From: a virus
Lineage: Duplodnaviria > Heunggongvirae > Uroviricota > Caudoviricetes
Virus record (IMG/VR): IMGVR_UViG_2693429768_000001
Coordinates: 1 to 64,000 of that record
Direction: 5' to 3' (one strand)
DNA length: 64,000 nucleotides
In this document: positions 30,284 through 33,219 of the stretch, piece after piece
How the letters are laid out: every line of letters begins with the position of its first letter
How positions within the stretch are numbered: the stretch's first letter is position 1
Program-made: the position numbers and the translations under genes
Notes under the pieces: model-generated
Databases searched by the model: none
The model's input: only the letters and a program-made list of their open reading frames with translations
Told to the model about the DNA's origin: nothing

Positions 30284-32544
30284 AAGAGCTGTGCTATGGA
30301 TCTGTTTGCAGTGGAATTGAAGCCGCGAGTATTGCCTGGGAACCGTTGGGTATGCGTCCGGCGTGGTTTGCTGAAATCGAGCCTTTTCCATCTGCCGTTC
30401 TTGCGCACCGCTGGCCCCATGTCGCCAACCTTGGCGACATGACAAAACTTGCCAAAAAAGTCCTGGCTGGGGAAATCGAATCCCCTGATGTGCTCGTCGG
30501 GGGTACGCCTTGTCAGGCATTCAGTATCGCGGGCTTACGTGGTGGGCTTGATGATGAACGCGGCGCGCTAACTTTGAAGTATGTGGAGCTTGCAAATGCA
30601 ATTGACGACAAACGGTCTGAGTCCTTCCTCAAACCGACAGTTATCGTCTGGGAAAATGTCCCAGGAGTCCTGTCATCGGCAGATAACGCCTTCGGATGTT
30701 TCCTTGCCGGATTGGCTGGAGAAGATGCGCCATTTGAACCAGGTGATCGACCTGAATCAGGAAAAAGTAACGCGTTCTGGCGGTGGGATGGCAAAACCGG
30801 TTGCCATGCTCCAAAGTGGCCGCAGTGTGGTTGTATTTATGGACCGCAGCGAAAGGTGGCCTGGAGAATCCTTGATGCCCAATACTTCGGAGTGGCACAA
30901 CGACGCCGACGCGTGTTTGTTGTCGCAAGTGCTCGAACAGACTTCGATCCCGCAACGGTACTTTTTGAGTTCGAAGGCGTGCGCCGGAATATTGCGCCGA
31001 GCCGAAAAAAGAAGGAAATCGCTTCCGCCATTACTGCAAATGGCGCTGCAATCAGTGGCGAAAGCCTAAATCCATGCCTACACGCTGGCATGTCCCCCGG
31101 TATGAAATCGACGAAATCCGTAAACGGTTTCAGGATGGCGGCATTTGGGGAATATATTGACGATGAAACCGCATCGACAGTAAAGGCAAGAGACTTTAAA
31201 GATGCCACTGACCTTGCCGTTTTTAGCAGCACTGGAGCAGGTTTTTGGTCAGAAGGGCATGGTACATTGCGGGCGCGTGAGCAAGAAAGCCATGAGCATC
31301 TTGTTACATTGGCTTTTCCTGAGCGTATGAGTGGTACACAACATGCAGCAACTAAGAATACTTCACCATCTCTAATGGCTCAAAATCCAACTGCTGTTTG
31401 CTATGAAGTAAGAAACGAAGAAGTAGCTGTCCGCCGTCTTACCCCTGTCGAATGTGAGAGACTTCAAGGTTTTCCTGATGGGCATACATTGATCCCTACG
31501 GAAAAGCGTAAAAAAGTTAATTCAGATGAACTGGCATATCTGCACAATCACTATCCAGATTTAAGCGAAGAAGAGGCCGCAATGCTTGCAGCTGACGGAC
31601 CGCGTTACAAAGCGATCGGCAATAGTATGGCGATACCAGTAATGCGCTGGATTGGCGATCGGATTGCCAAGGCTGCATGTCGGCAGAAGGAAGGGAGTGA
31701 AACAAAAGAGCGAAAAGTTAAACCAGCGGCAGAATTCGAACGGTCCATATTCAAATGGGCTGGTGGAAAATTTGGTGTTCTGGAACAAATCTTTCGCTAT
31801 TTGCCAGAAGGGAAGCGCCTGATTGAACCTTTCGTTGGTGGCGGAGCTGTCTTCATGAATGCCGGATACCAGGAAAATCTGCTAAATGATGTGAATGCTG
31901 ACCTGATTAACTTTTACAAGACTCTGCAACGCGAGGCGCATTCACTTATCACTCTGGCACATCGTTTCTTCCAGGACTACAACACGCAGGAAGGATACCT
32001 GGCAGTACGGAATGCGTTTAACAAACAAGTCTATGATGATTTACATCGCGCAGCGGCGTTTTTGTTCCTGAACCGACATTGTTTTAACGGATTGACGCGT
32101 TACAACCAAGCCGGTGAGTTCAATGTCGGTTATGGGAAGTATAAAACTCCGTATTTCCCATTGCAGGAGATGGAAGCCTTCCTTGGTGCGGAAGGGCGTT
32201 CTGAGTTTGTATGTGGTGATTTTGCTGCGGTGATTGAAGCTGCCGGAGAAGGAGATGTCATCTTTTGCGATCCGCCGTATGAACCGCTCCCAAATACAGA
32301 GGGATTCACGAACTATTCCGGTCATGACTTTAAGTTTGAAGAGCAAAAACGCCTGGCGTCTCTGTTGACGGATGCTCATCGCCGAGGTGCAAAGGTTCTC
32401 ATTACTAACAGTGGCGCGCCAAACATCAGAGAACTTTATCAGGACAGTGGCTTCAGAGTGGAACCTCTTTTTGCCAGACGTTCTGTGTCTTGTAAGGGGG
32501 ACACTCGAGGTGTTGCTCATGACGTTATAGCAATATTGCTCTAA
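30280..32544 (+). CDS. dmt: Bifunctional DNA methyltransferase: N-terminal C5-cytosine MTase motifs, C-terminal Dam-like N6-adenine MTase, 754 aa
   Basis: GTG start overlapping hrdC stop; PCQ and ENV motifs in N-half; FxGxG and DPPY in C-half. Confidence 0.85.
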
Positions 32545-32551
32545 TAAATTT
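32535..32551 (+). promoter_or_regulatory. C1-operator-like site ATTGCTCTAATAAATTT overlapping the dmt stop; embedded -35 TTGCTC and -10 TAATAT (32560-32565)
   Basis: Perfect match to recalled consensus; partially palindromic CTAATAAATTTATTAG. Confidence 0.75.
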
Positions 32552-32571
32552 ATTAGTGTAATATCGCCTCA

Positions 32572-32754
32572 ATGAATCGTGATTTATAGAGCGATTTAGC
32601 TGTTAGCCGCGACAGGCGCGGCGGCAAGTATGGCGGGGTAGTGACTCCTTCCCCCTCATGACGCCGAGTTGCCAGGTTGACCATACGCCTAAGTGGCAAC
32701 ACCGAAGTGCGTTACGAGCTTCCAGTTTGCCCATCTTCGGGTGGGCGTTTTTTT
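32572..32754 (+). ncRNA. Candidate ~180-nt structured transcript from the operator-controlled promoter to an intrinsic terminator
   Basis: Hairpins GCCGCG..CGCGGC and GTTGCC..GGCAAC; no ORF with an RBS; inferred, not demonstrated. Confidence 0.3.
32729..32754 (+). terminator. Rho-independent terminator (GCCCA-loop-TGGGC then T7)
   Basis: Read directly. Confidence 0.7.
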
Positions 32755-33219
32755 CAGGGTTTTCGTCATGGTTAGCGACTTTGCGGCGGTTTAGAAACTG
32801 ACCATTAAAGTAAATGCAAACGATGATCTGATGATGGTAGCGGCCTAAGAAGCCAGACGCCACGGGGTATGAGTCGTCCCCCGTCAAAAAATCGACCGCA
32901 GAGTGTCCCCGTCTGTGTATTAGGGAACGGGGAGGCACAACAGGTAAGGGCGCTGGTGTGATTAACCAGATGAACGAGAAGGGGCCATCTGTTGGTCAGC
33001 GTCCTTTCCTGTTGCGTCTTCTTTTCAGCGTAACAGCGGTGCTTAACAGCACTTTGGGTACAGTTCCACGAATTTACGGGTATATCCCGTCATGCTGAAA
33101 GCGCTAATCACGCTGGAAGCCAGGGTTATGCATCCCCTGTTACCGAATTGCAGCCAGGGCGCGGTGCGCCGAAAAGCATACGGAGGTGGAAGCCCTCGCC
33201 GGAGACGTACCCGGCAAGT

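Follow-up and report, generated by a model that had tools for sequence, protein, structure and literature searches.

Does the repressor-controlled promoter at the end of dmt in P1-like phages drive a small RNA gene of its own, or does it head the operon of transfer RNAs (tRNAs) and ban that lies downstream? This question was addressed in a 64,000-nucleotide (nt) stretch of viral DNA (Caudoviricetes; positions 1 to 64,000 of IMG/VR record IMGVR_UViG_2693429768_000001), referred to here as the window. The locus comprises a bivalent operator for the C1 repressor, a promoter, a leader containing a conserved structured domain of about 100 nt that we call the DicF-leader element, and an intrinsic terminator. 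An original prediction, made from the DNA letters alone, had read this arrangement as a repressor-controlled RNA of about 180 nt that terminates before the tRNA cluster and is not a tRNA operon leader. Our analysis indicates that the element heads an operon as its leader, probably with a short RNA as a further product, and that it is not a separate gene.

The ban-operon promoter and its operators

The region around the leader was found to be 95 to 97% identical to that of P1-family phages. vB_EcoM-Ro157c2YLVW and P7 are nearest to it, and identity to P1 itself is 95.6%. When the locus was compared with P1 (GenBank AF234172), the operators, the -35 and -10 hexamers, and their position over the dmt stop codon were identical base for base, and operators and hexamers were invariant in an alignment of the window, P1, P7, and Ro157c2. 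The P1 record gives the order as the end of dmt, the bivalent C1 operator Oban ab (formerly named Op72ab), the promoter P1ban, a "dicF-like region," tRNA-Asn, tRNA-Thr, further genes, tRNA-Ile, and ban. In that record the operator is assigned to the control of ban expression, and a second promoter, P2ban, is predicted besides P1ban. In the P7 record, the same operators are annotated for control of the tRNAs and onward. The downstream order of tRNAs followed by ban is likewise shared with the P1 ban operon, from which nothing essential differs. What sets the window apart from P1 is that it is a P7/Ro157c2-like relative with an extra tRNA-Tyr and with a different hairpin at H2, one of the helices of the domain described below.

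The 17-mer ATTGCTCTAATAAATTT, which constitutes Op72a, is the sole perfect copy of the operator within the window. As originally predicted, it overlaps the dmt stop codon (TAA, 32542-32544), and the hexamers TTGCTC and TAATAT are spaced by 17 base pairs (bp); these are exactly the hexamers annotated as P1ban in P1. The prediction described this one operator and missed the inverted second site, Op72b, which matches at 15 of 17 positions and overlaps Op72a by 6 bp, so that the two together make up the bivalent operator. All of the sequence features of the Op72ab-P1ban unit were thus found, namely, the consensus, the inverted second site, and the position at the end of dmt before the tRNAs and ban. 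A generic sigma-70 scan did not call P1ban, because its -35 hexamer matches at only 3 of 6 positions. The window contains 11 operator-like sites with no more than 3 mismatches, compared with 0.24 expected by chance, and none of 100 shuffles reached 11. C1-operator-like 17-mers with 1 to 3 mismatches are scattered through the window, for example, at 11787, 13449, 29013, 42847, and 48612, as is expected of a P1-type genome.

Given the P1 annotation and the induction of ban after inactivation of C1, the promoter is presumably under C1 control, and the position of the -10 hexamer predicts a transcript start near 32571. Judged by its sequence, the locus is the known repressor-controlled promoter of the P1 ban operon; it has already been annotated and is not new as a locus, and the "dicF-like" label is already present in the P1 genome record as well. 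The original prediction had overlooked this annotation, including the label, and had also overlooked that the hairpins of the transcript belong to a widespread domain. Its statement that the locus is not a tRNA operon leader is wrong, since P1ban and Op72ab are annotated for ban in P1 and for the tRNAs onward in P7. What is new is the fold of the domain with the covariation that supports it, the great breadth of its distribution, its constant association with a terminator, and the absence of the DicF part from P1. The novelty overall is modest.

A conserved structured domain next to a terminator

The fold of the DicF-leader element was defined from about 130 copies taken from viral contigs, phages, and plasmids and is represented by a covariance model, R1. 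The domain opens with helix H1. This is followed by helix P2, of 4 bp, which closes a loop composed of a linker and helix H2, and then by helix H3 with a large, near-invariant loop. The 6 bases GUAUGG of the linker can pair with CCAUAC of the H3 loop to form a pseudoknot. R1 recognized the window with 101 bits (E = 5e-24) as a single copy, and the window carries both the invariant loop AGGUUGACCAUACGCYURAGUG and the H1-P2-H2-H3 fold of the R1 definition. The domain was found once per locus. The hairpins GCCGCG/CGCGGC (32606-32622) and GTTGCC/GGCAAC (32669-32700), pointed out in the original prediction, proved to be real and to lie within this conserved structure. Comparison of the domain with Rfam 15 gave no family match.

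Covariation, which had been proposed as a way of examining the transcript, was assessed with 69 distinct sequences aligned to the covariance model, in which 97.2% of cells were paired. Compensatory change was seen at 7 pairs, compared with 2.4 in column shuffles, and none of 500 shuffles gave a value as high. When the partners were slid by 1 to 3 columns, only 0 to 3 pairs showed two-sided change. RNAalifold independently predicted H1, P2, H2, and H3. At least 7 different stem sequences were found for H2. The P2 pair occurs as U:A, U:G, or C:G, as does the pseudoknot pair, and no incompatible combination was found among 130 loci. The C:G variants of P2 and of the pseudoknot are present within P1-like plasmids themselves. 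These compensatory changes from U:A to C:G among P1-like plasmids indicate that the fold is maintained in the P1 setting.

Several known elements were considered for the domain and rejected. A likeness to 5S ribosomal RNA or to tRNA had no support from Rfam. An RfaH ops site was rejected as well: GGCGGTAAGTATG is like GGCGGTAGnnTG plus one extra base, and the key T is a C in the window, where the RNA partner compensates. A T-to-C change that is matched by a compensating change in the RNA partner indicates that the constraint acts at the level of RNA and not of DNA. As to a nut site (boxA/boxB), H1 is boxB-sized, but P1 is without N and the lambdoid carriers of the domain show no upstream N gene in scans of a few open reading frames.

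Beyond the domain and a short spacer lies the terminator, which had been called strong in the original prediction. It folds at -12.8 kcal/mol with a z score of -3.85, and none of 200 shuffles folded as well, which confirms that description. The terminator hairpin is preserved in relatives via one-sided changes. Among P1-like relatives, the spacer is variable through insertions and deletions and measures 19 to 35 nt, whereas the domain core is almost invariant; the pairing region of a processed 3' small RNA, if one exists, would sit in this spacer. From the predicted start to the last U of the terminator (32571 to 32754), the transcript would be about 184 nt long. The absence of an open reading frame with a ribosome-binding site, noted originally, was borne out. 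None of the small plus-strand frames (ATG at 32658, TTG at 32677, GTG at 32693, and a 5-codon frame from ATG at 32573) has a Shine-Dalgarno sequence or is conserved in P1 or in Escherichia albertii relatives, and coding potential was rejected for lack of this conservation. These results support a structured, non-coding leader.

Table 1. Coordinates of the leader and of adjacent features in the window
Feature	Position	Strand	Basis or remark
C1 operator Op72a (Oban a), perfect 17-mer	32535-32551	+	Scan; identity with the P1 feature
Promoter P1ban: -35 TTGCTC (32536-32541), 17-bp spacer, -10 TAATAT (32559-32564)	32536-32564	+	P1 annotation
C1 operator Op72b (Oban b), 15/17 matches, inverted	32546-32562	-	Scan; P1 and P7 annotation
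Hairpin at 5' end of transcript, weakly supported	32573-32598	+	-7.0 kcal/mol; z = -1.86
DicF-leader element (model R1), structured domain of ~100 nt	32606-32704	+	Covariance model, RNAalifold, covariation
H1	32607-32611 / 32617-32621	+	Part of domain
P2	32622-32625 / 32663-32666	+	Part of domain
Pseudoknot	32628-32633 / 32681-32686	+	Part of domain
H2	32635-32638 / 32652-32655	+	Part of domain
H3	32668-32674 / 32694-32700, extension 32675-32677 / 32687-32689	+	Part of domain
Variable spacer, domain to terminator	32705-32728	+	Insertions and deletions among P1-like relatives
Intrinsic terminator GCCCAUC-UUCG-GGUGGGC, then G and seven U (stem 32729-32735 / 32740-32746, UUCG loop, U 32748-32754)	32729-32754	+	Fold and scan
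tmRNA-like unit, next to the leader and not part of it	32759-32940	+	Tag frame and structure comparison
tRNA-Asn, tRNA-Tyr, tRNA-Thr	33220-33466	+	Would be reached only via read-through of the leader terminator

The domain is widespread. When the leader was compared by BLAST with 5,426 complete Escherichia coli genomes, matches were obtained in 4,424, so that the domain is present in about four-fifths of them. These matches were mostly limited to window positions 32607-32704, with about 82% identity, and occurred at up to 8 places per genome, where they are unannotated. An additional viral scan with the 5' motif gave few further variants, and nearly all hits of a 16-mer search of genome contigs were chance matches in GC-rich genomes, only the one in E. 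albertii being genuine. In K-12-type genomes, the Qin prophage carries the domain between ydfC and dicB, where it ends 24 nt before DicF (located by Rfam at 1622-1673 of the Qin record, L004). The alignment of P1 with Qin covers the domain only, and similarity stops at H3. This position in Qin indicates that the homology is to the segment upstream of DicF and not to DicF itself. In the Qin record, a perfect complementarity of 9 bp between CGUGCGCUU (1478-1486) and AAGCGCACG (1711-1719) brackets the domain and the DicF cassette; it is a candidate RNase III stem, near the expected cut that gives a 72-nt DicF. The P1 version showed no counterpart.

In 122 of 123 loci, a hairpin with a U-run follows H3 at a distance of 37 to 94 nt, and the remaining locus has a hairpin with just four U. 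In the window, the U-run begins 48 nt after H3. The stretches between H3 and the U-run fell into 11 sequence clusters, among them classical DicF, several DicF variants, unrelated modules, and the P1 module; the 3' module is exchangeable between loci or is reduced to a bare terminator. In cdtI, 2H10, an Stx2c phage, Salmonella phage F1055, Tritos, and Qin, the domain lies in a repressor-controlled early-left operon. In lambdoid carriers, it sits 280 to 800 nt inside a longer operon transcript and precedes the first intrinsic terminator, beyond which lie kil/dicB, recombination, xis, and int genes. In P1-like plasmids, it comes directly after P1ban. Pfam and PHROG scans of a few open reading frames between promoter and domain found no N-type gene in cdtI, the Stx2c phage, or Tritos. 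Among plasmid records, 467 of 615 matches covered at least 80% of a query spanning operator, domain, and terminator.

Domain and terminator are not always together. The terminator that D6 has without the domain is found in a D6-like plasmid with the domain directly ahead of it, and Shigella phage 75/02 Stx retains a DicF-like module with only a 3' stub of H3. D6-type plasmids (records L275, 2250-3000, and L276, 1380-1500) have about 750 nt of non-coding sequence upstream of this terminator. That stretch includes a 16-bp hairpin followed by a U-rich stretch, with the motif AAAGUGAAU that is also found after DicF terminators in lambdoid prophages. In Actinobacillus phage vB_Apl-pPE4 (record L010, 1560-1780), the DicF-like module that follows the domain is tandemly duplicated; the dicA/kil/recE early region of this phage is of the E. 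coli type, at odds with the stated host.

Termination, read-through, and alternative explanations

How would such a leader work? We put about even chances on the region being the regulatory head of a P1-type ban operon, with an attenuator-type leader that yields both a short RNA and read-through. The C1 operators Op72a and Op72b overlie P1ban. When C1 is inactive, a transcript would start near 32571 and fold into the four helices and the pseudoknot, and some 25 nt past the domain, polymerase would meet the strong intrinsic terminator. Many transcripts would then end at about 32754 as the RNA of about 184 nt, and a fraction would continue into the tRNAs and ban. With less confidence, we suppose that the domain would adjust this read-through, most likely by favoring it without a phage protein, following the logic of the HK022 put RNA. 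The terminated leader RNA may also act in trans, though the variability of the 25-nt spacer speaks against any conserved target for pairing in P1-like phages. The design would be a simple one, consisting of one promoter, one RNA domain, and one terminator.

The gene ban starts at 35608, 3 kb downstream and on the same strand. A generic scan called no consensus-like sigma-70 promoter on the plus strand between the terminator and the start of ban; the same scan also missed P1ban, which makes this weak evidence. The ban transcript increased after thermal inactivation of C1, to a lesser extent than those of ref (73-fold), ssb, dmt, and kilA (PMC4713147). Read-through is therefore expected: the P1 and P7 annotations assign the promoter to ban and the tRNAs, no consensus-like promoter was called before ban, and ban responds to C1. 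The weaker induction of ban relative to other C1-controlled genes fits an attenuated operon and would be explained by one. By homology with the dicF locus and from the anatomy of the leader, we likewise expect a discrete transcript of about 184 nt, made only while C1 is inactive. In this respect, the C1-controlled structured RNA of about 180 nt proposed originally remains a reasonable expectation, in view of the terminator and the DicF precedent.

That precedent is well described: DicF is a 53-nt RNA that arises by early Rho-independent termination and RNase E cleavage, and dicBF read-through transcripts extend to dicB and are cut by RNase III (PMC9438474; PMC5069750). Like the dicF locus of Qin (the dicBF operon; DicF is Rfam family RF00039), the window has a homologous structured segment of about 100 nt directly upstream and an intrinsic terminator within a repressor-controlled early operon. 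Unlike that locus, its small-RNA module is unrelated and its spacer is short and variable, and the P1 unit stands immediately after the promoter, whereas the Qin copy lies about 800 nt into the operon, after ydfABC. It could be argued that the leader works as an orthologue of DicF and inhibits ftsZ translation by antisense pairing, a reading that might be suggested by the label that the P1 record gives to the equivalent of window positions 32662-32763 (approximately). The P1 3' module does share the position of DicF, in that it comes right after the conserved segment, and it has a Rho-independent terminator at its end. The DicF covariance model, however, scored 72.5 and 75 bits on the Qin and O157 copies and found no match in the window at E values up to 10, and the P1 module beyond H3 is unrelated in sequence to that of Qin. 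The sequence largely refutes such an orthologue, which we consider extremely improbable. On these comparisons, the leader is a relative of the dicF locus and not a DicF gene. Prophage sequences related to dicF were reportedly the subject of Faubladier and Bouché (1994, J Bacteriol 176:1150), who may already note the conserved upstream segment.

A second relevant system is put. The put RNAs of HK022 and HK639 are cis-acting, factor-independent antiterminators whose read-through depends on the zinc-binding domain of the beta-prime subunit. Like them, the DicF-leader element is a structured RNA in an early operon upstream of terminators, and its lambdoid carriers include phages in which no N gene was found. 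The early-operon position holds for cdtI, the Stx2c phage, Tritos, and P1, and the absence of N comes from the scans of a few frames described above. Unlike put, which consists of two stems with a triplex and works over kilobases, the domain has four helices and a pseudoknot and always stands beside a single terminator. Homology to put was rejected: R1 found nothing in the put regions of HK022 and HK639, Smith-Waterman scores lay within the range of shuffled sequences, and the shared short motifs (GCGCGGCGG, ACCAUGCG, and UCAGGNUGA) were not significant. By this analogy, the domain resembles put only in its position and in the proposed logic and is not to be classed as put. Within P1 itself, control of ref is said, in the title of Windle et al. 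1988 (cited in PMC4713147), to involve a C1 promoter-operator and then an attenuator-antiterminator. This is a different locus, and the likeness is known from that title alone.

What the domain contributes is less certain than the leader as a whole. We tentatively suggest, as a possibility that we would not call likely, that it acts in cis on polymerase or on the adjacent terminator and so sets the level of read-through. A cis role at the terminator is favored because the terminator is the only neighbor shared by the P1-like and lambdoid contexts. No phage protein would be needed, since the domain occurs in both P1 and lambdoid phages and has only this neighbor in common between them. More speculative, and in our view unlikely, is that the domain represents a new class of protein-independent, cis-acting RNA that lets E. 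coli RNA polymerase pass an adjacent intrinsic terminator. If this were true, the domain would be the missing early antitermination device of many lambdoid phages and prophages that have neither N nor put, and it would serve the ban operon in P1-like plasmids. Knowledge of what role the domain plays would show how the early operons of N-less lambdoid phages pass the first terminator or how DicF-type RNAs arise, and why ban responds less than other C1-controlled genes. Through its leader, a textbook P1 locus is tied to an RNA domain that is very common in E. coli prophages and that has apparently not been described.

Several observations weigh against an attenuator in which the domain acts on the terminator. 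The covariation comes from a narrow sample, with a mean identity of 85% and few independent events outside H2. The comparison with HK022 and HK639 gave no R1 match and only chance-level local alignment. No alternative pairing between terminator and antiterminator was seen on inspection of the Qin and P1 versions. The terminator of D6, which lacks the domain, and the H3 stub of phage 75/02 Stx indicate that the domain is dispensable in some working phages. Finally, no further strong terminators were found downstream in the operons scanned, so a processive device is not obviously needed.

The original idea of a stand-alone, C1-controlled, trans-acting RNA of about 180 nt would have the unit end at the terminator and the tRNAs and ban be expressed independently. 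The strength of the terminator speaks for it, as does an RNA that is structured, non-coding, and conserved, with a domain core that varies less than the spacer, as it should if the functional RNA is the domain itself. Yet the annotations of P1 and P7 assign the promoter and operator to ban and the tRNAs, ban responds to inactivation of C1, no promoter was called between terminator and ban (with the reservation on that scan given above), and the lambdoid homologs sit well inside a longer operon transcript rather than at the start of a unit of their own; we consider this explanation improbable. We give rather more credence, while still thinking it unlikely, to a scaffold for processing or stability, in which RNase E would cut the precursor between H3 and the terminator and free an Hfq-binding small RNA of about 50 nt, with the domain guiding the cut or protecting the product. 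The 5' end of DicF is made by RNase E from a precursor that contains a homologous domain, the domain always lies directly upstream of a small-RNA/terminator module, and the P1 module ends in a hairpin and seven U, the usual Hfq-binding 3' end. The would-be pairing spacer, however, is short and variable beside a nearly invariant domain, a pseudoknotted fold of 100 nt with invariant loops exceeds the needs of the known RNase E guide hairpins, and DicF is reported to be active when expressed alone (PMC5069750).

If the leader were instead an attenuator of the riboswitch type, the domain would sense a metabolite or a host protein and decide whether the terminator acts. Its layout is typical of such elements, with a compact, aptamer-like, pseudoknotted fold and a terminator within tens of nucleotides inside an operon, and the expression platform differs between loci. 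Inspection by eye of the Qin and P1 versions, however, revealed no mutually exclusive pairing of the domain with either arm of the terminator, and no Rfam riboswitch family matches; a riboswitch seems quite improbable. We hold the same low opinion of a recombination relic, that is, a domain moved from a lambdoid prophage into the P1 lineage and functionless there. The distribution is mosaic, only the domain aligns P1 to Qin, and the domain is missing from D6 and truncated in phage 75/02 Stx, all of which would suit a relic. Against it stand the compensatory changes in P2, the pseudoknot, and H2 that arose within P1-like plasmids, a core less variable than the flanking spacer, and the three-part arrangement of operator, domain, and terminator kept by most of the matching plasmid records. 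The attenuator-type leader of the ban operon is the reading that we prefer.

Neighbors of the leader

The 460 nt of non-coding sequence that follow the terminator fold far better than shuffles (z = -4.2). The first 180 nt or so of this stretch have relatives in 257 phage records of unrelated types and resemble a transfer-messenger RNA (tmRNA). A tag frame runs from GCA at 32816 to TAA at 32846-32848, encodes ANDDLMMVAA*, and is preceded by UAAAU, a resume-codon context. The frame lacks a start codon, and neither AUG nor GUG occurs between it and an in-frame UAG 8 codons upstream. The carriers of this unit include Vi01-like Klebsiella and Salmonella phages, HK620, N4-like phages, and Drexlerviridae, in which it usually lies in or beside tRNA arrays. 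Tags of 10 codons were also found in Cronobacter phage SG01 (ANDDLMLMAA), E. coli phage Uz-1 (ANDDVVLMAA), Serratia phage phiMAM1 (ANDNAYLMVA), and HK620 (ANEEMYLAVA). The frame is kept in five unrelated phages, and the differences between them are largely at third positions or conservative. After the tag, there are a hairpin and an H-type pseudoknot with compensatory changes.

A tRNA-like domain was not found. Neither the window nor any of 20 related loci gave a tmRNA call by ARAGORN with default settings, and scores for the Rfam tmRNA families, 14 to 33 bits, lay under their gathering scores of 47 to 84. Calls of a "permuted tmRNA" by ARAGORN at lowered thresholds were inconsistent and were not trusted. 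If the tag template is real, it would be an unusual phage device aimed at ribosome rescue. The motif AGUGCUCUUUCC(G)AUA precedes tmRNA-like units (records L285, L293, L339, L362, and L378) and also follows neighboring tRNA-like pieces; phage tRNA arrays may share it as a spacer or as a signal for processing. In P1, the leader terminator takes the position equivalent to this motif.

Between the tmRNA-like unit and tRNA-Asn lie about 280 nt of strongly folding, non-coding sequence (32941-33219). This segment is common only to P1-like phages and D6, with about 91% identity, and has no Rfam match. The extra tRNA-Tyr (GTA; 33300-33386), between tRNA-Asn and tRNA-Thr, scores only 41.9 bits with the Rfam tRNA model; Ro157c2YLVW has this gene too, and P1 and P7 lack it. 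Farther downstream, positions 34026-34146 gave a sub-threshold match to STnc100, an enterobacterial small RNA (37.8 bits against a gathering score of 47; E = 1e-5). This match lies in the segment that replaces the plp, upl, and tci genes of P1.

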